Source: Candidatus Iainarchaeum sp. (lineage in GTDB: Archaea; Iainarchaeota; Iainarchaeia; Iainarchaeales; JAZDDZ01). Taken from it: a DNA stretch of 64,000 nucleotides. This document shows positions 12,289 to 51,215 of the stretch, piece by piece; positions within the stretch are counted from its first letter, which is position 1, and each line of letters opens with the position of its first letter. The notes below the pieces were generated by a model. That model was not told the DNA's origin, ran no database searches, and worked only from the letters and a program-made list of their open reading frames with translations. The position numbers and the translations under genes are program-made. The stretch spans positions 43,223 to 107,222 of the forward strand of contig JAZDDZ010000047.1 of the NCBI GenBank assembly GCA_043809245.1. Direction: 5' to 3'.

Positions 12289-12361
12289 AAAAAAAGTTAA
12301 ATTTTAGAGTATATATTAGTTTCTGGACCTCATTTCCTCTGCCAGCCAAAGGTGCAACCAT

Positions 12362-12925
12362 CTAAATTAAAATTGTTAACGCTGCAGCGCAGACAAGGGG
12401 AATCATGAGGTTGTCGTCAACAGGCAAGTATTCTGCGAGCATTCCGATTACTGCAACAATTATCGCGGCGCTTAATGGAAATAGCTGCGCCAAGAGCGCG
12501 GCTGAAACGATTATTCCCGCGATTGTCCCCTCAAGCGTGTAAGGCGCAACTGTTTTGATTCTCCCAATTGCCTTTCCTGCAATTGTGGAAATGGTGTCGC
12601 CGTAAACAGAAACCAATAGCGCGCCGAAAACGATTTCCTGCCCTGGAAAAAGAAAGACAAGCAGGAAAAAACCAAGCAAAAAGTACAGCGCGCCGTAGCC
12701 CGGAAAATGCTTTTCCTTTTCCCTGCCGAATTTTTGCACAAAAAAATTTATTGCAGGAATATTCGCGCCCCTTTTCACAAACCACGAGATAATTATTCCT
12801 GTGAGGAAAATCGCGGCAACAGCCAAAAGAAGCAATTGCCTTTCAATGAAAGCCGCGGCCAGAAGAAAAATTGTGCCAAGCACCGCGTGGAACAGCTTGC
12901 GTTTTGTTTCCCTCATTAAAGTCAT
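12362..12925 (-). CDS. Dolichol/phytol kinase-like (CTP-transferase family) membrane protein
   Basis: RKLFH, GDTISTIAGKAIG, TLEG, DDNLMIP. Confidence 0.8.
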   Translation of the reverse strand: MTLMRETKRKLFHAVLGTIFLLAAAFIERQLLLLAVAAIFLTGIIISWFVKRGANIPAINFFVQKFGREKEKHFPGYGALYFLLGFFLLVFLFPGQEIVFGALLVSVYGDTISTIAGKAIGRIKTVAPYTLEGTIAGIIVSAALLAQLFPLSAAIIVAVIGMLAEYLPVDDNLMIPLVCAAALTILI

Positions 12926-13656
12926 CGCGTTCTGCCCCTAATGAAATTAATTGCTTCACTTAAGCTTTTTTTATTGCTGTAAGAGCGCACTATTTTTTTC
13001 AAGGAAGTTGTTTTCTTGCCTTTGAGTTTTTTTGCCTCTTTCTCCAGCAATGGAATGCATCTAACAACATTGTCAACGATTGAAATGTCTGCCTTCTGCG
13101 CTGTCCTGCTGAAAGGGTTTAAGTCAACGGCAACAACTTTTTTCCCGTTTTTGCGGAGCGCTTCCGTTCTATCCCCGTCCTCAAGCATCACAAGCACGCA
13201 GTCAGCGCTCCAGATTCCATTTGAGCTGACGAAAGCGCGCTTTGATTCAAGGAAAGCAAGTTTTTTGCCAGGATTAACGCCAAGGATTTTTGCGCCGAAC
13301 TTGGAGAATTCCTTTGCAATAAGCAACTCTCTTTTTCTGCTGCGGTAGAAAAGATTCACTTCAATTTTTGCGCCAAGCGTTTTGGCGAGCGAAACAATTT
13401 CTTTTGCGCACAACGCGGTTGTGTTTCCGTTAACAGAGATTACGGGTTTTTCCGCGAGCAGCAACTGCGCAGCTGCAGCAGAAATTGCTTTTTTTGCAAA
13501 CTTCTGCGTTTTTTCCCCTAAAAGATAATCAAATGCCTCGCCCCTCCCCTGTGCAATCATTCCCGCGTGCGCGGCAATCCCTTTTTTTGCGGCCTCTTCA
13601 ATGAGGTGCCTTTGCATTAGCGAATTAAAGCGGGGATGCGATTTCGGCGGCTTCAT
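12922..13656 (-). CDS. pps: Phosphopantothenate synthetase (archaeal PPS)
   Basis: SHPR..SL..R, IAQGRGEAFDYLLGE, ISVNGN, LEDGDRTEAL, DLNPFSRTA. Confidence 0.92.
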   Translation of the reverse strand: MKPPKSHPRFNSLMQRHLIEEAAKKGIAAHAGMIAQGRGEAFDYLLGEKTQKFAKKAISAAAAQLLLAEKPVISVNGNTTALCAKEIVSLAKTLGAKIEVNLFYRSRKRELLIAKEFSKFGAKILGVNPGKKLAFLESKRAFVSSNGIWSADCVLVMLEDGDRTEALRKNGKKVVAVDLNPFSRTAQKADISIVDNVVRCIPLLEKEAKKLKGKKTTSLKKIVRSYSNKKSLSEAINFIRGRTR

Positions 13657-14507
13657 TGTTCGTGCGCCCCCTTTTCTGCAATGCGTGAAACAAGCGTGCT
13701 TTTAGTGAATTTTTTCAGCTGCGCTTCAATTTTTTCCGGTTCACTTGTTGGAACAAAAACTGTTTCCCCGAGCATTGCCATTGAAGCCGGGGGAATTTCC
13801 TCCATCACTTTGCGCACGTTTTCCGATGCAAGGCCTGTTTCAACTGAAAAAACGCGTGAAAGGTGGATGAATTCCTTGATTGAAGGCAATAATGATATTT
13901 GTTTCATGCAGTAATCCCCTGAACGGTTGATTTTTTCCATCCAGCTTTTGTCCTTGATTATTTTTTTGGTTTTCATTGCGGAAAAAAAACCGCAAACCAC
14001 GAATTCTTCTTCGCATTTAATTTCCTTCACTTTCTCTGAAGGATATGGCTGCAGGCCATACATCACGCCCTTAAACTGCTGTGCAATCACATCCCCCAAG
14101 CCTGTTCCTGCCTCTATTTCAGCTTGTTTTGCGAGCTCCATGCATTCCTTTAAGGAAAGCCTTGCGCCGAGCGCCTTGTTCAACGCAAGCGTAAGGGAAA
14201 ATGCGCCTGCTCCGCTTGCACCCAAGCCAAAGCCGATTGGCACTTTTGATTCAAAATTGCATTCAAGCGCGAATTTTTTGCCTGAAATTTTGGATAATTT
14301 TTCCGCTGCAATGCGGGAAGTCGAAGCGTTGAATCTTTCGCCGTTTAGGAAGAAATGCATTGAGTTTTTTTCGGCTTCCCTAACCTCCACTTCTGCCTTC
14401 ACGCCTTCGCTTAGATTGATTCCCGCGCCAGTGCTTCCATTGGAATAAATTTTAAAGAAGCAGGTTATGTGTGAGGGCGCATAAGCGCTTGCAGTTGATT
14501 TATGCAT
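13653..14507 (-). CDS. pok: Pantoate kinase (GHMP family)
   Basis: APSHITCFF, GSTGAG, PIGFGLGASGA, GTGLGDV, SMAMLGETVF. Confidence 0.9.
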   Translation of the reverse strand: MHKSTASAYAPSHITCFFKIYSNGSTGAGINLSEGVKAEVEVREAEKNSMHFFLNGERFNASTSRIAAEKLSKISGKKFALECNFESKVPIGFGLGASGAGAFSLTLALNKALGARLSLKECMELAKQAEIEAGTGLGDVIAQQFKGVMYGLQPYPSEKVKEIKCEEEFVVCGFFSAMKTKKIIKDKSWMEKINRSGDYCMKQISLLPSIKEFIHLSRVFSVETGLASENVRKVMEEIPPASMAMLGETVFVPTSEPEKIEAQLKKFTKSTLVSRIAEKGAHEQ

Positions 14508-14584
14508 TAATTTCACAAAAGAATTTTTATGCGAATGATTAATAAGGAAAAACGCTGTTAAGTTTTAGGGAAAAGAGACTTTCT

Positions 14585-14686
14585 ATGCATGGTCAGGAAC
14601 TGATAGAAACAAGTCACCGTTTTCTTAAAGAAATAACTTCGAGCATCAAAGACATCAAATCAGGGAGAGTTAGAAGGATCCGCTGA
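14585..14686 (+). CDS. 33-aa antitoxin-tail-like micro-ORF or remnant
   Basis: Manual translation: MHGQELIETSHRFLKEITSSIKDIKSGRVRRIR. Confidence 0.4.
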   Translation: MHGQELIETSHRFLKEITSSIKDIKSGRVRRIR

Positions 14687-14697
14687 TTTTTCCTTTT

Positions 14698-15369
14698 TCA
14701 CTTCCTTTTGCATAAAACCATTGCATGCTCTGTGTCAAAGGGTTCAAGGGAAACGGGCTGGATTATTTCAAATTCTTTCTCCAGCAGTTTAATCTCTTTT
14801 TCAACGACTTTTTGCGCTTTTTCGGTTTGGCTGATTGAGCGCACCTTAATGACCAAGAGGCCATGGCCTTCGCCTTTGAGGTACATGCGCGCGTTTTTCA
14901 GAAAAATCTGCGCCTGGTTTTTCTGGCTGACATCCTGGTACAATAAATCAACTTTTGTTCCGGAAAGGTCTTTCAAATAGCTTTGCGGCTGCTCTGCATC
15001 GCCTAAAATCGGCGCAATGTTTTTCCTGTGCTCGCACAGCCACAAAAATTTCCTCATGACCCTCTCGCTTATATCAACGCCGAAGATGACTCCTTCCTCT
15101 CCAATGATATCAGATAGGTGTGAAATAGTCGTTCCCTCTGCGCTTCCAAGGTAAAGGATGTGCGCGCCTTTTTTCACAGGCATTTCCTTTAAGCCTTTTT
15201 TTATCGCTGCAGCAAGCTTTGACCTTTCAGGCATCCACTGCCTGAACTCCTCTCCTTTTGATTCAAGCAATTGTTCGCCGTAAACTTTTACGCCTTTGCA
15301 GAGGTTTTTGGTAAATAAAAGCTGCCCAAACCCGTAGATTCCTGGAAACAATTCCTTCATTTCAGCCAT
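14698..15369 (-). CDS. flpA: Fibrillarin-like rRNA/tRNA 2'-O-methyltransferase
   Basis: VYGE, RSKLAAAI, LYLGSAEGTTISHLSDI, YQDVSQ, LEPF. Confidence 0.95.
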   Translation of the reverse strand: MAEMKELFPGIYGFGQLLFTKNLCKGVKVYGEQLLESKGEEFRQWMPERSKLAAAIKKGLKEMPVKKGAHILYLGSAEGTTISHLSDIIGEEGVIFGVDISERVMRKFLWLCEHRKNIAPILGDAEQPQSYLKDLSGTKVDLLYQDVSQKNQAQIFLKNARMYLKGEGHGLLVIKVRSISQTEKAQKVVEKEIKLLEKEFEIIQPVSLEPFDTEHAMVLCKRK

Positions 15370-15391
15370 AAAGAATCAAAAGCAATTTTTT

Positions 15392-16195
15392 TCATTTAAG
15401 GGAAGCCGCTCTTTGCTCAAGGCCTTTTCTTAATTTTTCACCCAGGGTTTTTTCTCCGCCAAAATAATCCGCCTTAACGGCTATTGCGAGCTTTGCTGCA
15501 AGCGACCTCGCAATTTTTCCCCTTGCATTTCGGTTAACGCTTTGCACTAAAGTGTTCTGGAACAAATAACCGTGCTTTGGCGGCTTTCCTTTTTTCTTAA
15601 GGTGCTGGAACAATGCTTTTTCCGCCCCCAAAACCTGCAGAGTGGAGGAAGGCATGAGCATTAATTTTTTCTTTGAGCCTGCTTTTGCTAAAAGCCTTGC
15701 GCCAACAAGCGCCCCAGCAAGCGCTGTGAAGTTTGGCAATTCCTCGTTCATTGATTTTTCAATGAATTTGAACAAAAACATCCTTTCCTCCTTTAGGTTC
15801 AATGCATTTAATGCAAGCAGCTTTATTTCAGCAAGGTCTGTTTCCTCTATTTCAGAGCCGATTGAGTTTTGGGCTGCCTTGATTATTTTTGCCGCTGCCT
15901 CTTTTTGCGGGTAAATTTCAATGATGCTTTTTTCAGAAAAGTTTTTCCTCTGCCCCAAATTGTAAACCAGCTTAAGGTATGCCTCCGGGTCCCTGACAGC
16001 GGAATCAAGCTCAGGGAAATGGTAGGCATACCATTCATGCAAATGCTCGCTTAAGAGGTTGAATACCGCGTCAAGGTCCTGCAAGGCGTTCACTGCGCGG
16101 ATTATGTGCGCTTCCCTTCCGCTGTATTTTTCCTTGACCTTTTCCTTCACGGAATGCATCATTTTTTTGCGCAAAGCGTCAATGTTTGAGTTCAT
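15392..16195 (-). CDS. nop5: Nop5 (Nop56/58) C/D RNP protein, N-terminally short
   Basis: EWYAYHFPEL, PSSTLQVLGAEKALF, PPKHG, RGKIARSLAAKLAIA. Confidence 0.92.
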   Translation of the reverse strand: MNSNIDALRKKMMHSVKEKVKEKYSGREAHIIRAVNALQDLDAVFNLLSEHLHEWYAYHFPELDSAVRDPEAYLKLVYNLGQRKNFSEKSIIEIYPQKEAAAKIIKAAQNSIGSEIEETDLAEIKLLALNALNLKEERMFLFKFIEKSMNEELPNFTALAGALVGARLLAKAGSKKKLMLMPSSTLQVLGAEKALFQHLKKKGKPPKHGYLFQNTLVQSVNRNARGKIARSLAAKLAIAVKADYFGGEKTLGEKLRKGLEQRAASLK

Positions 16196-16270
16196 TTGAG
16201 CACCAAGAGATTTAAGCCATTGAATGATTAAAAAGCTTTGCTGTAACTGCCATTAAAAAACAGCTAACCA

Positions 16271-18196
16271 CTAGAACAATGGCTTTGAATCGGCTTTTTT
16301 TCCGATTGGTTCCAATGGCAGCGTGAAATAAAAAGTTGAGCCTTTTCCTTTAACGCTTTCCACCCAAATTTTTCCGCCGAGTGCGTCAATGATTCCCTTT
16401 GATATTGCTAAACCCAATCCAACTCCGCCGTGTTCCCTGCTCATTGCCTTTTCCTCCTGAAAGAAGGGATTGAATATTTTAGGCAGGTTTTCTTTTTCTA
16501 TTCCCGCCCCCGAGTCCTTGACGCTGAAGAGAATGTCTTTTTCCCTCAGCGCGGATTTCACTGTTACTGCGGAGTTGTTAGGTGAAAACTTTACCGCATT
16601 GTTCAGCAGGTTGTTCAGCACCTGCATTGTTCGCATGGAATCAGTTTCAATTTCAGGCAAATCAGCGAGTTCTGTTGCTATTTTTATTTTTTTTTCGGGA
16701 AGAAAGTGTTTTTCCTCCTCTATTAGCTCAACTATAAGTGGATTCAGTTTTGTTTTCCTGAAATCAAATTTAACCCTTCCTGCTTCAATCATGGATACGT
16801 CAAGGAAATCCGCGACTATGCGGTCAAGCTTGTTTGTGTTCCTCAGTATTATTTCAAGCGATTCCCTTTGCTTTCCACTGATTTTGCCGTAATAATCCCC
16901 TAAAAGAAGCTGTAGCTGGCCTTTTATTGGCGTCATTGGGCTTCTCAGCTCGTGGCTGCTTATGGATAGGAGGCTTGTTTTTGCGCTTTCAACTTCCTTT
17001 CGCTCCCTTTCCATTGCGCCCAATGCATCCATTGCATTGTTGAATGTTTTTCCCAGCTGCTCCAGTTCGTCGTTGGTTTTTATTTCAACCCTTGTGTCCA
17101 GGTTGCCTTTCTCCAGTTCTTTTGTCGCGGAGTAAAGCCTCCTTATAGGCTCTGATATTGTGCTGGAAATGTAGATTCCTGCGAAAATTGCAAACCCAAA
17201 TGCAGCTATAACCACAAGCATAATTCTCCTCTGCAGTGCCTGGGCGTTGGTGTTCACTTCATCCAGCTCTTGGTTTAGCCTCTCGGTTTCAAGGGATGAA
17301 ATCTCTATCGCGGCAAGCCTCAGGTTTCTTGAGCTTTCAAACCATTGCCTGGTTAATTCAGCGTGCCCTTCAAGCTTGAATGTTTCGGGGTTTTGTTCAC
17401 GCAAGGAAACCAATTCGTTTGCAAGTTCAAGCACCTTAGGCGAACCTGATTTTATTGACTCTAATTCCTGTTTTTCCGCTGCAGTAACATTTTCATCCCT
17501 GAAATGCCAGTCAAGCAACGCGATTTTTCCAAGGAATGAATCATAGTTTTCGAAAAACAATTTTTTGTCGGAATCGCTGCCAAGGGCAAGGTATGCCAGC
17601 AGGCTGCTTTCGGATTTTTTTGCATATCTCTGCGCCTCGGTTGCTTCCTCAATTATTCCATGGGTTGTAAGCGCGGTGGCGTTTTCCATCATTGCGTCTG
17701 TTGTTTCAAGCAATTCCTTGGTTAGGCTTTCCTGGGATGCAAGGCTGAAATTTTCAGGGTCGCTGTCATGCAATTCCAGCAGATTGTTTGCCAGTGCAAG
17801 GATTTTGCCTGAACCTGCATTTAATTGCTCTAATTGCAGCCCGCAGCACCCTGTGGGGCCCAGGGTTTCCTCAAGCGTTTTTATTTGGCTGGCAAGCGAT
17901 GCGTATCTTTCAAAAAAAATATTCTTGTCGTTCTCGTCGTTCAAGGCAAGGTAAAGCAGCAGCCTTCCTTCCGCGCGTTTTGCGTAAACGCTTACTTCAA
18001 GCGCTGCAACCTGGTCTTCGCTTAGCTTGCCGCTGACTTTTTCGTAAGAGGACGCGATCTGCTGGCTGGCGTAAAAGCCAAAGGACCCCACAATCGCCAC
18101 AAACAATGCGGTTGCAATGAAGCCTATGATGAGTTTTCTGCCTATTGTCCCAAGAAAAACCTGCCTTTCCCCTGCAATTCGGGTTTGCTTTTTCAT
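16271..18196 (-). CDS. Membrane sensor histidine kinase (HAMP-HisKA-HATPase)
   Basis: Two TM segments, HAMP, SHELRSP, NLLNNAVKF, DSGAGI, GVGLGL, GKGSTFYF. Confidence 0.95.
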   Translation of the reverse strand: MKKQTRIAGERQVFLGTIGRKLIIGFIATALFVAIVGSFGFYASQQIASSYEKVSGKLSEDQVAALEVSVYAKRAEGRLLLYLALNDENDKNIFFERYASLASQIKTLEETLGPTGCCGLQLEQLNAGSGKILALANNLLELHDSDPENFSLASQESLTKELLETTDAMMENATALTTHGIIEEATEAQRYAKKSESSLLAYLALGSDSDKKLFFENYDSFLGKIALLDWHFRDENVTAAEKQELESIKSGSPKVLELANELVSLREQNPETFKLEGHAELTRQWFESSRNLRLAAIEISSLETERLNQELDEVNTNAQALQRRIMLVVIAAFGFAIFAGIYISSTISEPIRRLYSATKELEKGNLDTRVEIKTNDELEQLGKTFNNAMDALGAMERERKEVESAKTSLLSISSHELRSPMTPIKGQLQLLLGDYYGKISGKQRESLEIILRNTNKLDRIVADFLDVSMIEAGRVKFDFRKTKLNPLIVELIEEEKHFLPEKKIKIATELADLPEIETDSMRTMQVLNNLLNNAVKFSPNNSAVTVKSALREKDILFSVKDSGAGIEKENLPKIFNPFFQEEKAMSREHGGVGLGLAISKGIIDALGGKIWVESVKGKGSTFYFTLPLEPIGKKADSKPLF

Positions 18197-18202
18197 CTGG
18201 CA

Positions 18203-18733: not shown

Positions 18734-18734
18734 G

Positions 18735-39934: not shown

Positions 39935-39980
39935 ACATTAATAGAAAAAGACCGTAAGGGTTAAATTAGTTGTTTTTTAA

Positions 39981-39998
39981 TGGGCACGGGCGGATTTG
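39981..39998 (-). pseudogene. Displaced tRNA 3' end (T-loop to discriminator)
   Basis: Minus strand CAAAT-CCGCC-CGTGCCC-A; 13/18 identical to the tRNA-Ile 3' end at 41135..41152. Confidence 0.7.
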
Positions 39999-40065
39999 GC
40001 AGCGGCAACTCACTGTGTTTGCGGAGATTTAAATATAAAAAAGCCGAATATTTAATAGTGGTTAA

Positions 40066-41214
40066 ATGGAAGATAAAAGGCTGAAATTTCAGCCCGGCAA
40101 GCAGAGGGCTTTGTTGGAGTTATTTTTTTACAAGCACGGTTTCACCCAAAGAGAATTAGCCGGAAGATTAGGGGTATCAAAAGGCACAATAGCAGCATAT
40201 TTCACGGAGAAAAACAACCTATTGCTTTCAACTTTCCAAAAGCTTGAATCAATTGATCCCGCTGTAAAAGGATATGAAAAATTCATAGAAAAAGAATTGC
40301 CTCTCGGTTGGGGCGCAAAAAAGGGCGGTATCGAAAGGGCAAAACTTATTCCAAACAAGAAAACCTATTATGAAGGTATAAGGCATATAAAAAAATTGAA
40401 AGAATTAGCTAACGCTAGGAAAGAAAAAGAAAAAATAGAGAATCACCCTTTAGTTGAGGAGCTAAAGAAGGCTAATGTTGATTTGGAAGCCGTACTGGCA
40501 GTTTGCCTTTTAACGGATGGCTCACTCTGCATTAAAGGAAAAAATCTTAGGATTAGTTACACAACTAAAGACCATATTCTAGAAAAGCTGCTTTTTTCAA
40601 TGATGAACGAACTGTCAGCCAGGGTTCCAGGAATTGGTTTTTCACAAAGTGCTAATACCGTAAGGGTGAGTGATGACGCGCTAGCGAAAAAATTACTCAA
40701 CCTCAGCCCGAATTTCAAAACAAGCCCAAGCAGACATGAGACCAACGAGGATTATCTTAAAGAACCGCAGCCAACCATACGCTTTCTTTCAAAATCCAAT
40801 CAACAGACAAAAAAATGGGCTTTGAGGTTTGCATTCACTGCGGACGGCTACATCAGCAAGGCGGCAAATGGAAAAACAGAATTGGGGCTCTCCTGTTATC
40901 ACACGAATCTTGCAATTGAATGGAAACAGATTATAGAAGAATTTGGCTTATCCTGCACGCTTGCCCAAAACAAAAATTCTTGGTGCGGCATATCTGGAAT
41001 CAGAATTCAAAACATGGATTCTATTGGAAAATTTTTTCAGCTTGGCGGGTTCATAGATGGAGTTAAAATATCCAATAAAAGCAAAAAATTCAGGGGGCTG
41101 GCAAAAAACGAGCTGTTGACACAGATTGTGGAAATGGGAAAGGGAGGACTCGAACCTCCGACCCCCCGGTTATCAGCCGGATGCGCTAGCCACTGCGCCA
41201 CATTCCCAAAATAA
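40066..41214 (+). CDS. Free-standing HTH + LAGLIDADG endonuclease reading antisense through tRNA-Ile
   Basis: FTQRELAGRLGVSKGTI HTH, WGAKKGG, VCLLTDG, RFAFTADG. C-terminus MGKGGLEPPTPRLSAGCASH is the tRNA antisense. Confidence 0.8.
   Translation: MEDKRLKFQPGKQRALLELFFYKHGFTQRELAGRLGVSKGTIAAYFTEKNNLLLSTFQKLESIDPAVKGYEKFIEKELPLGWGAKKGGIERAKLIPNKKTYYEGIRHIKKLKELANARKEKEKIENHPLVEELKKANVDLEAVLAVCLLTDGSLCIKGKNLRISYTTKDHILEKLLFSMMNELSARVPGIGFSQSANTVRVSDDALAKKLLNLSPNFKTSPSRHETNEDYLKEPQPTIRFLSKSNQQTKKWALRFAFTADGYISKAANGKTELGLSCYHTNLAIEWKQIIEEFGLSCTLAQNKNSWCGISGIRIQNMDSIGKFFQLGGFIDGVKISNKSKKFRGLAKNELLTQIVEMGKGGLEPPTPRLSAGCASHCATFPK
41135..41207 (-). tRNA. tRNA-Ile(GAT)
   Basis: GGGAATG/CTTTCCC-A acceptor (one T-T mismatch); CCGG-CTGATAA-CCGG; GGAGG-TTCGAGT-CCTCC. 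Confidence 0.92.
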
Positions 41215-41319: not shown

Positions 41320-41352
41320 TTGCCGCAGCGGCAATCTACTCCCCCGAAAACT
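41320..41352 (+). repeat. Conserved palindromic motif upstream of endonuclease genes
   Basis: TTGCCGC-A-GCGGCAA. 41323..41352 is 26/30 identical to 51186..51215. Related copies at 39999, 44616 and 12333(-). Confidence 0.75.
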
Positions 41353-41380
41353 GCTTAAAAGACAAAACAAGAATCATTAC

Positions 41381-42325
41381 ATGAAGTTCTCCATTTTTGA
41401 TGTAGATAACCAATGGCTTGCAGAAAAAATCTGCATTGATGGAATAAACCAAGAAGCTAAAGACATTATAAAAAGTTTGGGCGGACCATCAAAAACCTGC
41501 AAACTTTTAAACTGCAAATATACGCGATTAAAAGAATGGTCTAACGGCAGGTCGCCCATACCTTTACATGTTTTGCTAAAAACGCTTAATGCATGCGCCG
41601 ACAGTTTTAAGGAAAAAATCAAAAACAAGATTGACTCAAAAGAAATTAACCTCAAGGCACAATACTCGCCGCACAAAGTAAAATTTCCAAAGAAAATGAC
41701 TCCTAACTTGGCTTACATAACAGGAGTAATTTTAGGGGACGGACATCTAGCCAGCAGCAAAGATAATGAAAAGGGAAACTGGGCAATATCTGTTTGCTTT
41801 GACAATTTAATGCATCTCAAGGTCTACAATCAATATATTAAGGAAATATTCGGCATCGAGCCTAAATATTATTTTTGCCAAAAGAAGAATTATTATGTTT
41901 CCTATTTTGCATCATTGACTGTCCACTGGTTTTTAAGGAATTTCCTCGAAATTCCAAATGGTAATAAAAGCAGCCTAATCCAAATGCCCGAAGTAATTGC
42001 CAATGGAGATGAAAAAATAATTTCAGCCTTCATTAGCGGGCTATTTGATTCCGATGGCACAATAACCAAAAACGGGGAACTTAAATTTGCAAGCACAAGC
42101 GAAAGAATTGTACACCAGGTTAAGGCTGCGCTAGCTTGTTTCTCAATTAAAAGCTATCATTCAAAATGGCTTAAATCGGAAAAATACAAAATGCTTCACA
42201 CAATCAGAATAGGCAAGGAATCAATTCAATCATTCGAGAAAACAATCGGATTTAAGCATCCAAGGAAAAAGCAGCTATTAAAAATGTTTTCAAATAAGAC
42301 TTTAGTTAATAGCCCCGTCGTCTAG
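41381..42325 (+). CDS. Free-standing HTH + LAGLIDADG endonuclease; stop codon inside tRNA-Gln
   Basis: LAYITGVILGDG, FISGLFDSDG, IGFKHPRK; ends AGC CCC GTC GTC TAG, which is tRNA nt 1-15. Confidence 0.88.
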   Translation: MKFSIFDVDNQWLAEKICIDGINQEAKDIIKSLGGPSKTCKLLNCKYTRLKEWSNGRSPIPLHVLLKTLNACADSFKEKIKNKIDSKEINLKAQYSPHKVKFPKKMTPNLAYITGVILGDGHLASSKDNEKGNWAISVCFDNLMHLKVYNQYIKEIFGIEPKYYFCQKKNYYVSYFASLTVHWFLRNFLEIPNGNKSSLIQMPEVIANGDEKIISAFISGLFDSDGTITKNGELKFASTSERIVHQVKAALACFSIKSYHSKWLKSEKYKMLHTIRIGKESIQSFEKTIGFKHPRKKQLLKMFSNKTLVNSPVV

Positions 42326-42429: not shown

Positions 42430-42445
42430 TTATCCTTTTTATTTA

Positions 42446-42530
42446 AAATAAAAAAAGAAAAAGCAGCCCCTTTTTTTTGGGGCTTTGTTTTTTGCGTTTA
42501 CACGATTTCGAATTGCACGCTGGCTGTCGC
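42446..42530. repeat. Direct repeat of 43290..43375 (displaced SIMPL 3' end and terminator)
   Basis: Near-identical terminator region. Minus strand reads ATASVQFEIV* versus ATVSVQFEIV*. Confidence 0.9.
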
Positions 42531-42844: not shown

Positions 42845-43279
42845 ATGCAGCCAATTGCATTAATCGCTGACACAAACGCCTTGCTTTCAGCGCTGCTAAA
42901 AGACAATTTGTCAAGAAAAATTTTTTTAAACCCGAAAGTGAAGCTTTCCTCGCCACAGCACATGAACGAAGAAGTCAACAGGCACGCAGAAGAATTAGCC
43001 AAAAGAATCGGCATAACGCAAAAAGAGTTCGTTCACGCATTCGAATTGCTTTTAGAAAAATCAGGGCTTGAAATTATTGCGGAAAAACAATACGAATCCC
43101 TTAAGCCAATGGCATTGGAATTATGCCCTGAGGGGCACAAGGACGACTGGCCTTTCCTCGCCTTGGCTTTAAAGCAAAACTGCGCTTTATGGTCAAACGA
43201 TAAAGCGCTCAAAAAACAATCAACAATTGAAGTACATTCAACATTTGAATTAAAGCAAAAACTCGGAAAACTGTTATAG
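42845..43279 (+). CDS. PIN-domain toxin
   Basis: IADTNALLSALL, DDWPFLALAL, LWSNDKALK. Confidence 0.9.
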   Translation: MQPIALIADTNALLSALLKDNLSRKIFLNPKVKLSSPQHMNEEVNRHAEELAKRIGITQKEFVHAFELLLEKSGLEIIAEKQYESLKPMALELCPEGHKDDWPFLALALKQNCALWSNDKALKKQSTIEVHSTFELKQKLGKLL

Positions 43280-43296
43280 CGCTGCATTGAAATAAA

Positions 43297-43338
43297 AAAA
43301 AGAAAAAGCAGCCCCTTTTTTTTGGGGCTTTGTTTTTT
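43297..43338. terminator. Bidirectional hairpin terminator
   Basis: A-rich run, AGCCCC-T8-GGGGCT, T-rich run, between convergent genes; second copy near 42460. Confidence 0.65.
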
Positions 43339-43342
43339 GCGT

Positions 43343-44227
43343 TTACACGATTTCAAACTGTACGCTGACCGTTGCGCTGTATTCTATGTCGCCTGGCGTG
43401 ATTGGCGTTGGCGCTGACGCGGCACCTTCCGCTACTGCGTCCAAGGCGTAGTTTCTGTACATTGGCACTACATAGTTTGAGCTTTCGCTTGCGCTGAAAA
43501 CCTGCCCCACGCCTATTCCTAAACCGGAGGCAATGCTTTGCGCTTTGACTTTTGCATTGGCAGCTGCTTCCTGTAAAGCCTGTGTTTTTAGCTGTGCTTC
43601 AACTGCTTTTGAAAGCGCGAAGGTAACTCCTGAAACCCTGTTTGCCCCTGCCTGAACCGCTGCGTCAATAACGCTTCCTGTTTTTGAAAGGTCTTTGACT
43701 GTCACCTGAATGCTGTTCGTTGTCCTGTAACCGACTGACTCGGATTTTCGGAGCGTTGAATTGTATTCAAAGTCCTCGCTTAAATTATAGGAAGTCGTTT
43801 CAATGTCGTCTTCCGCTATTCCCGCGTTCTTTAAAGCAGTCATGACTTTGCCAGCCAAAACAGCGTTGTCACTCTGGCTTTTTGAAGCGCTTTTGTCAAG
43901 CGTTTCAATGCTCAGGTAAATCAATGCTTCATCCGGTGCAGCTGTCTTTGTGATGGTGCCTGAAACAGAGAGCAGCCTTTTCTGGTTGCCTGAATCATCT
44001 GCCGCAAAGCTGATTACTCCCTCGCTTGCAGGCATTACTGCGCCTTCATTTGTTGAAGTGGTGCCCTGGCTTAAATAGCTTGGAAGCTGGACTGCGAGTT
44101 GCTTGTTTTCGCCTGAATTATCCGTGTTGGTTAAGGCGTTAAAGTTAAAGCCGATAACCAGTACAAGCACTGCAATGACAACTGCTGCCGCAATTATAAC
44201 CACATTTTTTGAATCCATTCTTTTCAC
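43343..44227 (-). CDS. SIMPL (DUF541) domain protein
   Basis: N-terminal TM; LSVSG..APDEA, IDAAVQAGANRVSGV, A..KAQSIA. Confidence 0.9.
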   Translation of the reverse strand: MKRMDSKNVVIIAAAVVIAVLVLVIGFNFNALTNTDNSGENKQLAVQLPSYLSQGTTSTNEGAVMPASEGVISFAADDSGNQKRLLSVSGTITKTAAPDEALIYLSIETLDKSASKSQSDNAVLAGKVMTALKNAGIAEDDIETTSYNLSEDFEYNSTLRKSESVGYRTTNSIQVTVKDLSKTGSVIDAAVQAGANRVSGVTFALSKAVEAQLKTQALQEAAANAKVKAQSIASGLGIGVGQVFSASESSNYVVPMYRNYALDAVAEGAASAPTPITPGDIEYSATVSVQFEIV

Positions 44228-44357: not shown

Positions 44358-44615
44358 ATGGGTTTGCTGGATTTTTTGGGCAAAAAAAAAGATGAAAGCA
44401 GTGAAGCAGAAAACGCAAAGGAAGCCAAAGCGGCAAAGGAATCAAAAGAGGCAAAAAAGGAAGCCGCAAAAGAAGACGCTGCCTCTGACGCAAAGTATGA
44501 GGGCAAGGAATGCTCGATGTGCGGCGGCATGGGCGCTGAAAAAAAATGGATGGGGCAATACTGGCACAAAAAATGCCTTAGGTCGATGAAGAAAGGCGCG
44601 CGAAAAATGATTTGA
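44358..44615 (+). CDS. Small Zn-finger protein
   Basis: CSMCG..YWHKKC; low-complexity K/E/A N-terminus. Confidence 0.65.
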   Translation: MGLLDFLGKKKDESSEAENAKEAKAAKESKEAKKEAAKEDAASDAKYEGKECSMCGGMGAEKKWMGQYWHKKCLRSMKKGARKMI

Positions 44616-44692
44616 TTCCGCAGCGGAAACGCACCCTGAAAAGCTATTTAAACAGCCCGAAGCCAACTTTTTCTGGAAGCAGTGGTGGCAGG

Positions 44693-45115
44693 GTGCAGAG
44701 GATTTATTTGGATTCAAATATTTTTATCGCTTATATCAGGAGCGATATGGGCAAGCCGTTCAAGCTGATGTTCAAGGATGTTGAGGATTTCTTTGACTGC
44801 TGCCCGAATAGGTTCGTTCTTGTTTTGTCCGAATTTTTTATTGAAGAAGTCGAAAAAAAAGTGCACTATTCAAAAAGCATGGTTGGAGAATTCTTTAAAG
44901 ATTACAAAATTTCAACTGAATTTATTGAAACAACCAAAATTGAAAAGAAATTGGCTCCCGAGTTTTTCAAAAAAGGGCTGCACGCTGGCGATGCATTGCA
45001 TGCTGCTTTTGCAATAAATTCAAAATGTGATTTTCTTTTGACTTTCAACATTAAAGATTTTAAGCGACTGGAAAACAGGATTAAGTTAAGAGAGCCAAAA
45101 GAACTAGTCGAGTGA
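44693..45115 (+). CDS. PIN/VapC toxin, convergent with the RHH gene
   Basis: IYLDSNIFI, DALHAAFA, LLTFNIKDF; start trimmed to GTG 44693. Confidence 0.88.
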   Translation: MQRIYLDSNIFIAYIRSDMGKPFKLMFKDVEDFFDCCPNRFVLVLSEFFIEEVEKKVHYSKSMVGEFFKDYKISTEFIETTKIEKKLAPEFFKKGLHAGDALHAAFAINSKCDFLLTFNIKDFKRLENRIKLREPKELVE

Positions 45116-45433: not shown

Positions 45434-45790
45434 CTATTTTTTCTTTGCCCTTCCGTATTTGTCCTCGAACCTTTTGATGTCGTTCTCTTCGAATTTTCCG
45501 AAGGAAATCTCCAAAACCATTGCCTCTTTGGAGGAATTGTTTTGAATTCTGTGCCTTGCCCCCTTTGGAATGAAAATGCTCTGCAGTTTTTTCAGCAGGG
45601 TTTTTTTGCTTCCAACCGTTACTGTAATCCCTTCGGTTAACGCAGCCCATTGCTCTGAGCGCTTTTTATGCGATTGAAGGGAGAGGATTTGCTTTGGCTT
45701 GACTGTTAAAATTTTTACGGTTGTTTTTTCATTCAAAGTGAAGCGCCTGAAATTCCCCCAGGGCCTTTTTTCAAAAAAAGTTTTACCCAA
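45434..45790 (-). CDS. Type II mannose-6-phosphate isomerase-like cupin
   Basis: RPWG, LSLQSHKKRSEQW, IPKGARHRI, ENDIKRFEDKYGR. Confidence 0.9.
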   Translation of the reverse strand: MGKTFFEKRPWGNFRRFTLNEKTTVKILTVKPKQILSLQSHKKRSEQWAALTEGITVTVGSKKTLLKKLQSIFIPKGARHRIQNNSSKEAMVLEISFGKFEENDIKRFEDKYGRAKKK

Positions 45791-45794
45791 GCTA

Positions 45795-47696
45795 TCACTC
45801 TTTCAATAATTTCCCAATTTCTTGTTTTAAGGCTTTGCTTATCGCGTCACCGGATGCTTTTCCGCGCAGTTGCTTCATTGCATCGCCCATTAAGGCGGAT
45901 AATGCTCCCGAACCTTTGGCTTTCACCATTGAAGCGTTTTTTGCGGCAATTTCCGCAATAATTTTCTGAACTTCCCCTTCATCTGCGCCCTCAATTTTAA
46001 GTTCACCCAAAATTTCTTCAAGGAATTTCTGCGGTGCGCTGCCCCAGTGCTTTAAGACAGCGAGAAGCACTTCCCTTGTGATTTTCTTTTCCTTCAAGGC
46101 AAGAAGCGCTGCCTCAAGCATTTCATCGCTTAAAGCGTCAACGTTTGCCTTTTCGCGCTTGAGCTGCGTCAGGCCTTCAAGCAAAAGCACAGCAGTCGGA
46201 ACAGCCTCAAATCCTTTTCCAACAAGGTGCTCAAAAAAGCGCGCAAAATTGCTTGTGGCCATTTCCTTTGCAAGCTTTTCGCTTAAGCCGAATTTTTCAA
46301 TGTAAAGTTTAATTCGCTCTTTTTCGCTTGAAGGCAAATGCTTTTTTATTTCTTCAAGCATTCCAGCGCTTAATTTTATTGGCGCCAAATCGGTTTCAGG
46401 GTACATTCTTGCGGCTCCGGGAAGTGGGCGCGAGTACTCCGTGTTTCCATCAGCCAAGGCGTTGCGTGTTTCTTCTGGAACTCCTTTCAGGCACTGCTGC
46501 GCCCTTTCAATTACCGCATTGAATACATGAACCGCTTTCTGCTGTTCAGCTACAACAATTACAAAGGCATCGTTTGCATCAAAACCGCTTTTTTTCCTTA
46601 AAGCCTCTTCAACTGAAAAGACTTCTGTCTGCGTTATGCCATAATTCGGGAGTTCATCTGAGTGAAAGATTCCCTTCAAGCCGGCTTTTGCCTTCACGTG
46701 CGCTGCAAACTCCGAGCCAAGCCTTTTCCCGGGCTGCAGTTCTTTTCCGATAATTCCCTTAAAGCCAGCGAGCTTCATTGCATAAGACGCTTTTCCTTTC
46801 GTGATTTTGCAATCGGATTTGTCAAGGATTTTTGAAACTTCAATGAAATCCATTTTCGCAATCTTTTCCTTTGAAGCCTGCCTTTTTTCCAGAGCCCATT
46901 TCACTTCCACTAACTTCAATTGCCTTTCCACTTCGCGCTGAACATACAAGTCAATCAAGTCCAGTTCCTGCACGCCCTTAATTTCAACGCGCGCTCCGCC
47001 GCGGATTGAAACATTCAAGTCCTGCCTAATTGTGCCCAGGCCGCGCTTCACTCTTCCAGTCAGGCGGAAAATTGTGCCGATTGCACGCGCAGCTTCCTTT
47101 GCTTCCTTTGGCGAGGAAATGCCAGGCGCGGTTGCAAGCTCTATCAACGGAATCCCCAAGCGGTCAAGCCTGTAAAAAATTTCATTATCGGTTTTCTTTG
47201 TGGGCCTTGCAGCGTCCTCTTCCAATGCAATTGTCTGCACGCCCAATTCTTTTCCGCTTTCCAGCCTTATTTTTCCGCCTGTTGCAACAAGCGCGGTTCT
47301 CTGAAAACCCGAGGTATTGGAACCGTCAATCACTGCTTTTCTCATAACAAATATTTCATCCATTACATCCGCGCCAAGCATGAGCGAGATTTCAAGCACT
47401 GTTTTTAGCGCATCTTTGTCGGCTGGCTTTACTGGCTCTTCGTCCAGTTCAATCAGGCAATTGGTGTCCTTGTATGCCTCGTAAACAAATGTAATGCCTT
47501 TAGCCGCTGCTTCTAGAGCAGCCGCATCATATTCCCCTAACTCTGATGCAACCGCGCGCAGCTGCCTTTTAACCAAAAGATGCGGTTTGTCTTCGCGTAA
47601 AATGCTTGGGCACCTGCAGAACAGTTTGCCGGATTCAAGCTGTTGGTGCACTTCCAAGCCGCATTTCAAGCCCAATTGTTTGAAGTCAAGGTCCAT
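45795..47696 (-). CDS. gatE: Glu-tRNA(Gln) amidotransferase subunit E
   Basis: GLEVHQQL, DGSNTSGFQRT, RLDRLGIPLIE, RGLGTIRQDLN, PGAARMYPETD. Confidence 0.95.
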   Translation of the reverse strand: MDLDFKQLGLKCGLEVHQQLESGKLFCRCPSILREDKPHLLVKRQLRAVASELGEYDAAALEAAAKGITFVYEAYKDTNCLIELDEEPVKPADKDALKTVLEISLMLGADVMDEIFVMRKAVIDGSNTSGFQRTALVATGGKIRLESGKELGVQTIALEEDAARPTKKTDNEIFYRLDRLGIPLIELATAPGISSPKEAKEAARAIGTIFRLTGRVKRGLGTIRQDLNVSIRGGARVEIKGVQELDLIDLYVQREVERQLKLVEVKWALEKRQASKEKIAKMDFIEVSKILDKSDCKITKGKASYAMKLAGFKGIIGKELQPGKRLGSEFAAHVKAKAGLKGIFHSDELPNYGITQTEVFSVEEALRKKSGFDANDAFVIVVAEQQKAVHVFNAVIERAQQCLKGVPEETRNALADGNTEYSRPLPGAARMYPETDLAPIKLSAGMLEEIKKHLPSSEKERIKLYIEKFGLSEKLAKEMATSNFARFFEHLVGKGFEAVPTAVLLLEGLTQLKREKANVDALSDEMLEAALLALKEKKITREVLLAVLKHWGSAPQKFLEEILGELKIEGADEGEVQKIIAEIAAKNASMVKAKGSGALSALMGDAMKQLRGKASGDAISKALKQEIGKLLKE

Positions 47697-47752
47697 CAGC
47701 ACACCAAAAGAAAGGTGAACAAAAAGGGTTTTAAATGGCTATTTGCAGCCTA

Positions 47753-48727
47753 TTAAAAGTATTTTATTTTGTGCACTTTGTGGAACAGGAAGTAATCGTA
47801 GTCCTTCACTTTTCCGGGGAATTTTGCGCTGAATTTTTTGACAAAGCGCTCCATTTCCTCGGGCCTTTCAGCCAGGATTTCAATTTCCAAGTCTGCGAAG
47901 CTGATTGACTTGTCGATGTAGATTGTTGAAGGCTCCGCGAGGGCAAAGGAAACCATTTCAGCGTATTTGTCCAGGTCATTTAACTGAAAATTTATCTTGT
48001 ACATTGCGAGCCCCATTTTCTCCAGGTTCAGCCTTGCCCTGAATCCTTTAATAATTCCGTTTTTTTTCAGGTTTTTCATCAGGAGCTTTATGCTTGAAAC
48101 GGAAATGCCTGTTTTCTTTGCGAGTTCAACAGTAGGCAGCCTTGCGTTTTCGCTTAAGGCGGAGAGGAGCTTTTTTTCCGAATCAGAAATCGAAATCGAG
48201 CCAAATGTTTCCCCCACAACCTGCACCGGCCTATCAAGGATTTTTTCAGGCACAAGGAATGCCGCGGCACAGTCATGCACTTTCGTGTAAGGGCAAACCA
48301 CGCTTTTAAGCATAAATTTTTTGTATTTAGAGGTTATTTTTTCCCAGAATTGCTCAAACTCATATATGTTCTTCATGTAGGAGACAAAGCCGAAATTGAA
48401 TTCCCCTGAAATGCTGCCAACCCACCAAGTGAATGGGCTTGAAGTAATTGCTTCAACGAATCCTTTTTCCTCCTCTACCGTATCAAACCTTACCCTCAGG
48501 TAAATCCCGATTCCCTGGAAGCCAAGCAAAGGCTTGTCAATCACTGTATAAAAAGAAACAATGAATTCTTCCCTTAGAAGCCTGTTAATGCGGTAATTTA
48601 CCACATTTTTATCCATTGCCATTTTTTTTGCAATCTGCGAGTTTGACTGCCTTGAATTGCAGTCAAGCTCGAAAAGAATAAGCCTGTCCTTTTCATCCAA
48701 ACCACCAAACTTTGCCTGTTTAGCCAT
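47753..48727 (-). CDS. Tandem Lrp/AsnC-family regulator
   Basis: LDEKDRLILFELDCNSRQS..VNYRINRL and LSENARLPTVELAKK. Confidence 0.85.
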   Translation of the reverse strand: MAKQAKFGGLDEKDRLILFELDCNSRQSNSQIAKKMAMDKNVVNYRINRLLREEFIVSFYTVIDKPLLGFQGIGIYLRVRFDTVEEEKGFVEAITSSPFTWWVGSISGEFNFGFVSYMKNIYEFEQFWEKITSKYKKFMLKSVVCPYTKVHDCAAAFLVPEKILDRPVQVVGETFGSISISDSEKKLLSALSENARLPTVELAKKTGISVSSIKLLMKNLKKNGIIKGFRARLNLEKMGLAMYKINFQLNDLDKYAEMVSFALAEPSTIYIDKSISFADLEIEILAERPEEMERFVKKFSAKFPGKVKDYDYFLFHKVHKIKYF

Positions 48728-48912
48728 ATTTAATCATATAGCTCAAAATAGCATAAAAATATATCTGTTTGAACAAAAAATAGTACTTAATTTTTATTAA
48801 GTTGAAATGATGCTATTTATTTGTGGTGTTATAAAAAAGAAAAAAAACAAGGCCAGTCTTCCGAAGCATTTGTTTAACTGCTTCAGCAAGTTTTGAGGAA
48901 AGGCATAAAACT

Positions 48913-49782
48913 ATGCAGCAGAAAAAGTTAGCCTCAGCCATTAGGCGCGAGGCAAAAAAAGGGAAAGCAGTTGTGCTTTGCTCCGGCGGAGTTGACAGCA
49001 CTGTTTGCGCAGTGCTTGCAAAAAATGCCTTGGGCAGCAAAGCGGTTTTTTATTTCATTGATTCAGGTTTCCAGCGGAAATTTGAAGCCCAAAAAGCTGA
49101 AAAAAATCTGGAAAAACTTGGAATCACGCTAAAAATTTTTAATGCAGGGCATTGCTTTTCACAGCTGAAAAAAAGCAGGGCAAATTCAGTTGAAAGAAGG
49201 GCGCTTTCCCTGGCTGGTTTTTCCCGCGCGGTTGAATTGATTTCAAAAAAAGAGAAATGCCGGGCATTTATTTTTGGGACAACCCAAGATGATTTGGCTG
49301 CGTCGGGAAAACAGTCAGGCGCGAATAAAAGCGGGTTCACGATTATTGAGCCGCTTAAATGCCTGGAAAAAAAACAGGTGCGCGGGCTTGCGGAACAACT
49401 GGGCATTCCAAAAAAAATTATTCACGCACAGCACTTTCCTGGGCCTGGGCTTTCATTGAGGGTTTTAGGCAGGCTGGATGGCAGAAACATCGCGTTGGCA
49501 CAGGAACTTCACGCGTTTTTTGAAAAGAAAAAGAATTGGCTTGTCGGGAAAAAGGGGGATTCAATCTTTTTTCCTTTTGTTATCCCTGCAAATGAAAATG
49601 GGAAAAAGTGGGTTGGGATTAGGGCACTAAAACAAGTTAACGCAGAAACTGCAATACTGCCGGAATTAAGGTTAGAAAAACTATGGCTGCTTGCAGCAGG
49701 GATATTGGATGAATTTCCCTCGGTTGGAAGAGTGCTTCTGGATATATCCCCAAAACCACCGGCAAAAATGGAGATGCTTTGA
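48913..49782 (+). CDS. Divergent GMP synthase ATP-pyrophosphatase subunit-like protein
   Basis: SGGVDS, IEPL..K..VR, FPGPGL, RVLLDISPKPPA. Confidence 0.75.
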   Translation: MQQKKLASAIRREAKKGKAVVLCSGGVDSTVCAVLAKNALGSKAVFYFIDSGFQRKFEAQKAEKNLEKLGITLKIFNAGHCFSQLKKSRANSVERRALSLAGFSRAVELISKKEKCRAFIFGTTQDDLAASGKQSGANKSGFTIIEPLKCLEKKQVRGLAEQLGIPKKIIHAQHFPGPGLSLRVLGRLDGRNIALAQELHAFFEKKKNWLVGKKGDSIFFPFVIPANENGKKWVGIRALKQVNAETAILPELRLEKLWLLAAGILDEFPSVGRVLLDISPKPPAKMEML

Positions 49783-50556
49783 ATGAAAAAAGAAAACAAC
49801 ATCGCTCTAATCTGGGACGTATTACTTCACTTCATGTATCCACAGGAATACGCGGAATCGCTGGCAGAATTCCTGAAGAAAAAAAAGGCGCACTCGATTC
49901 TTGACGCCTCATGCGGCACTGGCTTTCCGTCAATAGAGCTTGCAAAGAAGGGCTTTAATGTAATAGGCGCTGATGCGGATGAAAAAATGCTTGAAAGGGC
50001 AAAGCAGAAAAGCGTGGAACAATGCGCGAAACTTGAATTCATGAAGGTTGACTGGACAAAACTATCAAAAACATTCACGCAAAAATTCGACTGCGTCATG
50101 TGCAGGGGAAACTCGCTTCCTTATGCGGCATCGTGGGGAAAAGAGTCACTTGACATCCCAATTGCAAGGAAAAAAATTGAAAAGGCCGTTGAAAACTTTT
50201 ATGCGGTTCTGAAAAAAGGCGGCATATGCTATATTGATGCGGCGCCAAAAGTTGATTTCCTCCCGAACCACAAAAAAGAAGTCATTTTTGACCCGCTTGT
50301 GATTGACGGCAAAAGCGTCAGGATGATCCAGCGAATTTACCACGACAACAAGAAGCACATCAGGCACTGGAAACCAATTGTTGAAATTACCGCCAATGGC
50401 AAAACCAAAACCATGTGGAAAAAATACAAAGGCTATCACTTGGGGCACGATATCCTTGTCTCGCTGATGAAAAAAGCCGGTTTTTGCAAAGTGGACGAAT
50501 ACGTTGAAATAAAAGGCGAAAAGAATTATGACGTGTTCGTCGGCTACAAGAAATAA
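49783..50556 (+). CDS. Class I SAM methyltransferase (glycine/sarcosine N-MTase-like)
   Basis: ILDASCGTG, FDCVMCRGNSLPY, LKKGGICYID. Confidence 0.8.
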   Translation: MKKENNIALIWDVLLHFMYPQEYAESLAEFLKKKKAHSILDASCGTGFPSIELAKKGFNVIGADADEKMLERAKQKSVEQCAKLEFMKVDWTKLSKTFTQKFDCVMCRGNSLPYAASWGKESLDIPIARKKIEKAVENFYAVLKKGGICYIDAAPKVDFLPNHKKEVIFDPLVIDGKSVRMIQRIYHDNKKHIRHWKPIVEITANGKTKTMWKKYKGYHLGHDILVSLMKKAGFCKVDEYVEIKGEKNYDVFVGYKK

Positions 50557-51150
50557 TTAAGCGCTTTTTTTCGCAATCCAGATTCTCTGGAGTGCCGTGA
50601 AGTTTGAGAGCACTGCAAGGAAGGCAATAACGTAAACAAGGAATGAAAGGTCAATTGACGCGGCAATGATTCCAGCAAACAATAAAATCATTCTCTCAGC
50701 CCTCTCCAAAAGACCGCCTTTCAGTTCCTTTTCCACTAATTCTTTTTCTTTTGCCGCAGCCTTAACGTAAGTTGTCATCATTGCGCCGAAAAAGTAAAGG
50801 AAAAGCCATGCAACAGCCGGAATGAAGAAAAACGGAAGGGAAACGAATAAAAGAGCGAAAACAATTATTGCCTCAATGTACCTGTCCACAATTGTGTCCA
50901 GAAAAGCGCCGAACTTGCTCACTGTGCCTGTAACGCGAGCAACAGAGCCGTCAACAAAGTCAAGGAACGCGGCAACAATCAATGAAACCGCGGCAAAAAC
51001 AAACTGCTGCTGGAAAATGAACCAAAAAGCCGCAATAGCGGGAAGGATTGAGATAAGAGTCCAGGCGTTAGCGCTGAAGGGGATTTTGCTGAATGCAATG
51101 CCTATTTTTACCGACAACTTTTCAAACCTTTCACGGTTCCTGTAAAGCAA
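50557..51150 (-). CDS. CDP-alcohol phosphatidyltransferase (archaetidylinositol-phosphate synthase-like)
   Basis: DFVDGSVAR..GAFLDTIVDRY, YVKA, ERAER; downstream of ino1. Confidence 0.88.
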   Translation of the reverse strand: MLYRNRERFEKLSVKIGIAFSKIPFSANAWTLISILPAIAAFWFIFQQQFVFAAVSLIVAAFLDFVDGSVARVTGTVSKFGAFLDTIVDRYIEAIIVFALLFVSLPFFFIPAVAWLFLYFFGAMMTTYVKAAAKEKELVEKELKGGLLERAERMILLFAGIIAASIDLSFLVYVIAFLAVLSNFTALQRIWIAKKSA

Positions 51151-51182
51151 GCATTCACCTTTTATGAGATAATTTTGCAGTA

Positions 51183-51215
51183 ATTCCGCAGCGGAAATGT
51201 ACTCCCCCCAAAGCT
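51183..51215 (+). repeat. Conserved palindromic motif upstream of endonuclease gene
   Basis: ATTCCGC-A-GCGGAAA, 15 bp identical to 44615..44629. Confidence 0.75.

Follow-up and report, generated by a model that had tools for sequence, protein, structure and literature searches.

The window analysed here, a 64,000-nt stretch of Candidatus Iainarchaeum sp. DNA (contig C47:43223-107222 of a 1.48-Mb genome in 55 contigs, termed G000; relatives are numbered with G, contigs with C, and loci with L), carries four copies of a conserved 22-24-nt box placed directly upstream of the core promoters of three LAGLIDADG endonuclease genes and one PIN-domain gene. The box is a specific unit of fixed promoter geometry, it precedes host replication and repair genes as well as selfish genes elsewhere in G000, and it is conserved in related genomes. 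We infer that a protein binds it, and the element is probably the cis-regulatory site of a replication, recombination, and repair regulon that extends across the order (DPANN, Diapherotrites/Iainarchaeota) and that selfish genes have joined. A regulatory site is the best reading because the box is conserved at the promoters of single-copy host genes. A literature search, supplements aside, found no description of the motif or of a DPANN regulon.

The element was first noticed as a 10-mer, GCAGMGGMAA, at five positions of the window in a first-pass annotation made from the sequence. The 10-mer is present at all five, and it is overrepresented in the window (13 matches against 1.26 expected, with none of 100 shuffles reaching 13). 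As a unit it is not specific: of 147 matches genome-wide 135 lie inside crudely called open reading frames (ORFs; 90.6% of G000 is ORF), 78 of these 135 being in frame as GCA-GCG-GAA (Ala-Ala-Glu), and only 12 are outside ORFs. Alignment of the intergenic copies gave the real unit, which is about 22-24 nt in length and reads WTYCGCA-S-CGG-M-AA-Y-N-Y-ACT-S-Y, with G4, C5, A6, G9, G10, A12, and C18 invariant among 26 copies. A strict 16-mer taken from this consensus, GCASCGGMAAYNYACT, has 19 genome matches, all 19 of them intergenic, and the reversed control pattern has none. The motif is asymmetric and has a conserved 3' extension, AAYNYACTSY. The covarying palindrome described earlier was not recovered, as the TTGCCG left arm occurs in only one of 13 sites having the CGGCAA right arm, and the left arm is TTCCG, TTTCG or TTTGG irrespective of the right arm.

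A 24-nt matrix was built, the genome was scanned and the downstream genes were listed. The scores are bimodal, with 27 sites at 26.8-37.0 bits followed by a gap down to the next best site at 17.7 bits. Of the 27 top sites, 26 had served to train the matrix, and the remaining one (C54:91739) is independent of it. The 17.7-bit site precedes another LAGLIDADG gene with a helix-turn-helix (HTH) segment and is plausibly a 28th copy, for a total of about 28. Four of the five positions first noticed belong to this family (28.3-36.1 bits). The fifth, 12333 on the minus strand, does not; it falls far below zero with the matrix and is missing from the nhmmer matches at E<=100. The eight other window matches of the 10-mer also score below 0 bits.

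All 28 sites are single and face a gene start. The claimed fixed distance to a TATA-like box was confirmed: counted from the first base of the motif, the TATA begins at a distance of 30-34 nt in 23 of the 28 sites, or some 16-20 nt past the 10-mer, and the first ORF of at least 50 aa begins 58-95 nt past the motif start in 22 of 26. A purine-rich stretch resembling the B recognition element (BRE; CGAAAG, CAAAGC) sits between box and TATA, and the start codon is ~25-30 nt beyond the TATA. The arrangement is that of a leaderless or nearly leaderless archaeal promoter, in which the box occupies about -65 to -40. Similarity among the copies stops at the TATA. These are generic properties of transcription-factor sites: the copies are intergenic and oriented, they keep a fixed distance to the core promoter, and they recur at the orthologous promoters of genes with related functions.

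The genes behind the box in G000 fall into two classes. Among 26 classifiable sites, 9 precede host replication/repair genes and 17 precede selfish genes. The host genes encode MCM, RadA (with an intein), an SSB-like OB protein, NurA followed by HerA, archaeal RecJ/GAN (NF053576, 2.7e-154), a PD-(D/E)XK Cas4-like nuclease, and a radical-SAM/HhH putative DNA repair protein (TIGR03916); less certain members are a 508-aa PolB-fold protein and a 388-aa protein followed by a DEAD helicase. The 388-aa protein has a homologue of 274 aa, likewise uncharacterised, and the two precede a DEAD helicase and Kae1/TsaD. The selfish or mobile-type genes encode LAGLIDADG endonucleases (eight, several with an N-terminal HTH), PIN proteins (four 140-aa paralogues), Bro-N proteins (two), and TnpB. 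An N6/N4 methylase plus BsaWI-type endonuclease restriction-modification pair (L003:1618-3141, C42) has a box promoter, and a 132-aa protein behind another box looks RelE-like and has no family match. The annotation had considered a selfish-gene-specific element and had named, beforehand, occurrence of the motif ahead of host genes as the outcome that refutes it; the motif stands before host replication/repair genes. Its alternative of a dimeric activator site co-regulating selfish genes held in part: a probable co-regulatory site at a fixed distance from the TATA was found, whereas the gene set is not selfish only (9 of 26 are host genes) and the site is asymmetric rather than a covarying palindrome. 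Inteins are found in RadA, HerA, a DEAD helicase, and an AAA protein of G000 (L002, L018, L007, and L009), three of these lying in box-driven units.

Two conserved families of proteins behind the box have no assigned function. The 508-aa protein (L016:1611-3134, C10) has relatives of ~500 aa at L071, L080, L093, L127, and L027, and the family gave no sequence match in Pfam, NCBIfam or PDB. With its AlphaFold model (pLDDT 71), family-B DNA polymerases were the only structural matches (Foldseek 2e-07, probability 1.00). The family has three invariant cysteines and adjoins the Orc1 paralogue in G031; judging by the model, it may be a miniature PolB2-like repair polymerase. The other protein has 82 aa (L011:1576-1821, C48), is ~60-74% identical among close matches in Diapherotrites (Candidatus Diapherotrites archaeon), and is predicted to have four strands plus a long helix (pLDDT 87). 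Fold searches with it gave weak PC4 and Pur-alpha matches (Foldseek E 0.2-0.8) and, with VIA-align, none above Z 4.7. Its gene overlaps a following PIN gene (L011:1821-2294) by 4 nt.

Conservation of the box was followed in related genomes. The strict motif is present in 9 of 41 relatives, and a looser 15-mer, CASBGGMAAYNYACT, in 65 of the 151 genomes of the order, with control matches of at most two per genome. The 15-mer is nearly absent from two families (f3, 0 of 16 genomes; f31, 1 of 7), and in a phylum-level sample it has 1-2 matches in two of seven genomes beyond the order. Lineage-specific variants are CAGGGGAAATCTACT in G035, CACCGGAAATGCACT in G055, and CAGTGGAAAYCCACT in G139. The same gene families recur behind the box in at least six genomes, and the host genes do so in other families of the order as well: MCM (G027, G035), RadA (G035), HerA (G035), NurA (G003), the SSB-like protein (G013, G039), the radical-SAM/HhH protein (G027), NreA and a DEAD helicase (G039), the ~500-aa PolB-fold family (G003, G013, G031, G035, G039), and the 82-aa family (G025, G035), together with many LAGLIDADG, Bro-N, and TnpB genes. 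In a relaxed scan of MCM promoters, 9 of 27 genomes score at least 7.8, a value that 90% of random 600-nt windows do not exceed. The nine boxes share one orientation and lie 77-111 nt upstream of the gene. For the control gene, the conserved Orc1, 1 of 28 upstream regions reaches this score. By eye, several further MCM promoters retain CA[CG]NGG[AC]AAY ~20 nt before the TATA.

The window copies and their genes are collected in Table 1. Two similarities among the copies that had been described were verified: 41323-41352 and 51186-51215 are identical at 26 of 30 positions, and the copies at 44615 and 51183 have a common 15-nt identical run. The copy at 44616 does begin immediately after a host stop codon (TGA, 44613-44615). 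The PIN gene behind it is one of the four G000 paralogues, every one of which has the motif in front. The acidic residues of both LAGLIDADG motifs are kept in the three window endonucleases that were read. A tRNA remnant had been placed at 39999; Infernal found none at 39950-39999 (E<=1) and detected only the intact tRNA-Ile at 41135-41207 on the minus strand. The HTH-LAGLIDADG ORF crosses this whole tRNA gene (41134-41208) antisense before reaching its stop, its final ~27 codons being antisense to it, and hence the endonuclease gene abuts or overlaps the tRNA gene. Elsewhere in the window, a 90-nt direct repeat (42441-42530 and 43286-43375, 90% identical) contains a terminator-like hairpin plus the 3' end of a SIMPL gene (43343-44227, minus strand). 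The repeat copies flank a PIN_2 gene (42845-43279), which from its sequence context looks like a ~845-bp insertion with a duplicated target.

Table 1. Motif copies in the window, their core promoters, and the genes downstream (scores are from the 24-nt matrix).
Feature	Position	Strand	Sequence and layout	Score or remarks
Motif copy	39995..40018	+	TTTGGCAGCGGCAACTCACTGTGT; TATA TTTAAATA at 40028; ATG at 40066	29.6 bits
HTH_3 + LAGLIDADG_3 endonuclease gene, 382 aa	40066..41214	+		Pfam HTH_3 6e-07, LAGLIDADG_3 4e-06
Motif copy	41321..41344	+	TGCCGCAGCGGCAATCTACTCCCC; spacer CGAAAACTGC; TATA-like TTAAAAGA at 41355; ATG at 41381	33.3 bits
LAGLIDADG_3 endonuclease gene, 314 aa	41381..42325	+		Pfam 6.6e-17; LGDG and FDSDG motifs readable in translation
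Motif copy	44616..44639	+	TTCCGCAGCGGAAACGCACCCTGA; TATA TTTAAACA at 44647	28.3 bits; directly 3' of the TGA of ORF 44358-44615
PIN-domain gene, 140 aa	44693..45115	+	GTG start at 44693	Pfam PIN 1.3e-06; start offset +77
Motif copy	51184..51207	+	TTCCGCAGCGGAAATGTACTCCCC; spacer CCAAAGC; TATA TAAATAAA at 51215	36.1 bits
LAGLIDADG_3 endonuclease gene, 359 aa	51279..52358	+	TTG start	Pfam 4.8e-06
10-mer match only	12333..12342	-	Upstream of LAGLIDADG gene 11353-12288 (minus strand)	-7.5 bits at best

Several other explanations of the box were weighed against a regulatory site. A portable promoter cassette or mobile-element end, in which a 45-nt block of box, BRE, and TATA spread recently with selfish genes and owes its conservation to that spread and not to selection for binding, would account for the 17 of 26 classifiable sites that precede such genes, for the likeness of the two window copies at 26 of 30 positions, and for the box in each of four G035 TnpB/IS605 copies. 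Selfish genes in G000 also have the GCAG variant disproportionately often (13 of 17, compared with 1 of 9 for host genes; Fisher p 0.003 on classes drawn post hoc). However, when the 29 other variable positions are compared, pairs of G sites show no greater likeness than G and C sites do (0.473 against 0.493, permutation p 0.95). In most relatives host and selfish genes alike carry GCAC; the bias in G000 possibly stems from selfish genes arriving out of lineages dominated by CAGCGG. The cassette is unlikely, since the copies cease to resemble one another past the TATA, the surroundings of the window copies showed neither terminal repeats nor target duplications, and single-copy host genes carry the box, as do orthologous MCM promoters in several families. 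The G035 elements point the same way. These four IS200/605 copies (L096, L098, L099, and L101) have the box in an internal tnpB promoter, and in three of the four, when aligned, a common sequence with a hairpin-like inverted repeat reaches ~60-70 nt upstream of it, so the box lies inside the element rather than at its end. The common element end or recombination site that the annotation had offered as one option is therefore disfavoured by both the orthologous host promoters and the internal position in the IS copies, and shared descent beyond functional positions, element ends, and target duplications, the marks of a mobile cassette of the miniature inverted-repeat (MITE-like) kind, were not found.

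A target or homing site of the LAGLIDADG enzymes, or a site of site-specific recombination (Xer, integrase), is very unlikely. The box does co-occur with endonuclease genes in at least six genomes and one copy is near a tRNA gene, but the endonuclease genes lie downstream of an unbroken box and do not split it, the box also precedes about ten host genes, which cleavage would damage, and 28 oriented copies in a constant promoter layout are not what a dif or att site would look like. Infernal, moreover, detected no tRNA remnant. Also unlikely is that an alternative basal factor (a second TFB or TBP) recognises these promoters as a class, in place of a gene-specific regulator. The rigid spacing of box and TATA fits it, cyclic transcription in Sulfolobus is reported to be driven by a TFB paralogue (bioRxiv 10.64898/2026.09.06.749720), and a 95-aa ORF having a single TBP-like repeat (27 bits; L134, C49:48908-49111) is present. 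Against this, searches of the 91.8% complete genome turned up a single TFB gene and a single TBP gene with two repeats, and an ordinary purine-rich BRE-like stretch separates box and TATA, which puts the box outside the part of the promoter read by TFB. Least probable of all is that the boxes are origin recognition boxes (ORBs) of true origins or origin remnants. The sequence resembles published mini-ORB and C3 sites, but each site is single and faces a gene at a fixed TATA distance, with no inverted cluster around an AT-rich stretch; repeat searches gave no convincing ORB cluster around either Orc1 gene of G000 or around the conserved one in G016, G023 or G027.

If the box is a regulatory site, the leading candidate for its binder, put forward tentatively, is a second Orc1/Cdc6 paralogue. 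G000 has two Orc1/Cdc6 genes, one of them conserved in all 41 relatives compared (49-71% identity) and the other, at C48:36156-37508, more divergent. In a sample of 20 promoters of orthologues of the divergent paralogue (the closest orthologues on usable contigs plus G031), nine contain the box, always in reverse orientation and in three families (G016 and G085; G150, G042, G110, G078, G145, and G103; G031). The box directly abuts the paralogue's own TATA in six of the nine, and at these promoters it also serves a divergent transcript, which differs between genomes. The box variants TTCAGGGGAAATCTACT and CAGTGGAAATTTACT resemble the Sulfolobus Orc1 sites mORB (GATTTTCAGATGAAACG) and C3 (GAAACGTAGGAAATTTAC) published in PMC3089459. 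Next to the Orc1 paralogue of G016 (L030), the box promoter is immediately followed by a ~60-nt sequence (about 520-580) that is repeated ~900 nt away (about 1440-1500); as this box copy has no ORF behind it, it may drive a non-coding or antisense transcript. The box is also loosely reminiscent of the TTTSGCGC sites of E2F/DP factors; PF02319 (E2F/DP) had no match in G000, but none in control genomes either.

A number of observations weigh against the regulon or against this binder. In G000 itself no box lies upstream of either Orc1 gene, and the Orc1 paralogue behind the box may be merely another controlled replication gene and not the controller. Both G000 Orc1 proteins are nearest to Sulfolobus Orc1-1 (2qby_A) and not to the ORC2/Orc1-2 class, the divergent paralogue scoring 5e-52 to 2qby_A versus 4.4e-14 to 1w5s (ORC2). 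The spacing of the half-sites is unlike that of ORBs, which tells against an Orc1 protein. PCNA, RFC, primase, ligase, and the replicative polymerase are all missing from the 28 first genes plus 22 scanned operon partners (their own loci were not located). At ~27-37 bits the box holds an unusually high amount of information for a single transcription-factor site. The genome is 91.8% complete, the host and selfish classes were defined post hoc with related sites that are not independent, and the adjacency of motif and paralogue at G016, G085, and G031 had been noticed before the 20 promoters were sampled.

The nearest parallel is found in the Sulfolobales, where Orc1-2 is a damage-response regulator that binds its own promoter and reads a promoter element common to damage and repair genes, the damage-response element (DDRE; ANTTTC), as described in PMC9738581. 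Here likewise the promoter of an Orc1 paralogue carries the box in three families. The Sulfolobus B-family polymerase Dpo2/PolB2 is reported to be damage-inducible (PMC7390963), and here a diverged PolB-fold gene is behind the box in five genomes. The differences are that the box is a 22-24-nt element of high information versus a hexanucleotide, that MCM and RecJ/GAN are among the members, that the phylum is a distinct one (DPANN), that binding is only predicted, and that the paralogue has its closer counterpart in Orc1-1, the Sulfolobales regulator being of the ORC2/Orc1-2 class. On the reverse strand ANTTTC becomes GAAANT, which demands a T at position 15; of 26 copies just 2 have one, and the hexanucleotide is thus no general feature of the box.

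Sites of the ORB, mini-ORB, and C3 kinds are roughly comparable to the box in build: they are asymmetric, ~17-24 bp long, and have a TTC..GGAAA core that is extended on one side. In Pyrococcus the mini-ORB reads TTCCAGTGGAACT (PMC1904270), and the Sulfolobus C3 site includes GGAAATTTAC, which is also within the CAGTGGAAATTTACT variants here (PMC3089459, as above). Over 9-10 nt the box (TTCCG-N3-CGGAA followed by AAYNYACTSY) resembles the published oligonucleotides of mini-ORB and C3, but its half-sites are spaced differently from TTCCA-N1-TGGAA; moreover, ORBs are clustered and inverted around an unwinding element, whereas the sites here are single and tied to promoters.

In the bacterial SOS system, one operator sequence likewise places prophage, toxin, and DinD-type genes under the same control as recombination and repair genes, and the Bro-N proteins behind the box may be reminiscent of DinD. 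That system is bacterial and based on LexA, whereas here the setting is archaeal, LexA is absent, and the box is upstream of BRE and TATA, the position of an activator, rather than over the promoter. Archaeal activator sites such as those of Ptr2 and TFB-RF1 lie directly upstream of the BRE; they are like the box in standing next to BRE/TATA with fixed phasing, although their sequences and regulons are unrelated to it. By analogy, the box appears to work like a damage or replication regulon (Orc1-2/DDRE, or SOS with mobile-element passengers) yet departs from the DDRE system in sequence and in the class of the candidate regulator, and from ORBs in arrangement.

On the regulon reading, the 22-24-nt box would be the upstream part of a composite archaeal promoter consisting of box, BRE (CGAAAG-like), TATA, and start codon, and a protein would bind the box and activate the downstream genes. 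Activation is the more natural mode because the box sits directly upstream of the BRE, where activators recruiting TFB/TBP are placed, and not over the TATA or start as for repressors. The inducing signal would presumably be DNA damage or replication stress. Selfish genes, namely those for free-standing LAGLIDADG enzymes, PIN and other toxin-antitoxin-type proteins, Bro-N, TnpB/IS605, and the restriction-modification pair, have this box in their promoters and would hence be expressed alongside the recombination machinery. A fuller version, which we consider doubtful and somewhat less likely than the Orc1 candidate by itself, is an SOS-like programme in Diapherotrites/Iainarchaeota: a 24-bp box derived from an origin-recognition sequence would be read by the second Orc1/Cdc6 paralogue, which would regulate itself through a shared bidirectional site, and homing endonucleases, TnpB, toxin-type nucleases, and restriction-modification systems would have copied the box so as to fire when recombination is induced. 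Were this so, it would be a second, independently evolved master regulator of the Orc1 family; and if the binder is the Orc1 paralogue, the link between initiator and damage-response transcription, so far seen in Sulfolobales, would extend to a distant phylum.

Gene regulation is almost uncharted in DPANN archaea, which are not growable alone, and a sharply defined box makes a regulon directly testable there. It would be the first DPANN regulon to be defined, and one to which selfish nucleases are systematically tied. The box also hints at a function for the conserved proteins behind it, the ~500-aa PolB-fold family and the 82-aa family. Finally, the data suggest that selfish nucleases couple their own expression to that of host recombination genes, a coupling that would explain the persistence of so many free-standing endonuclease genes in a 1.5-Mb genome.

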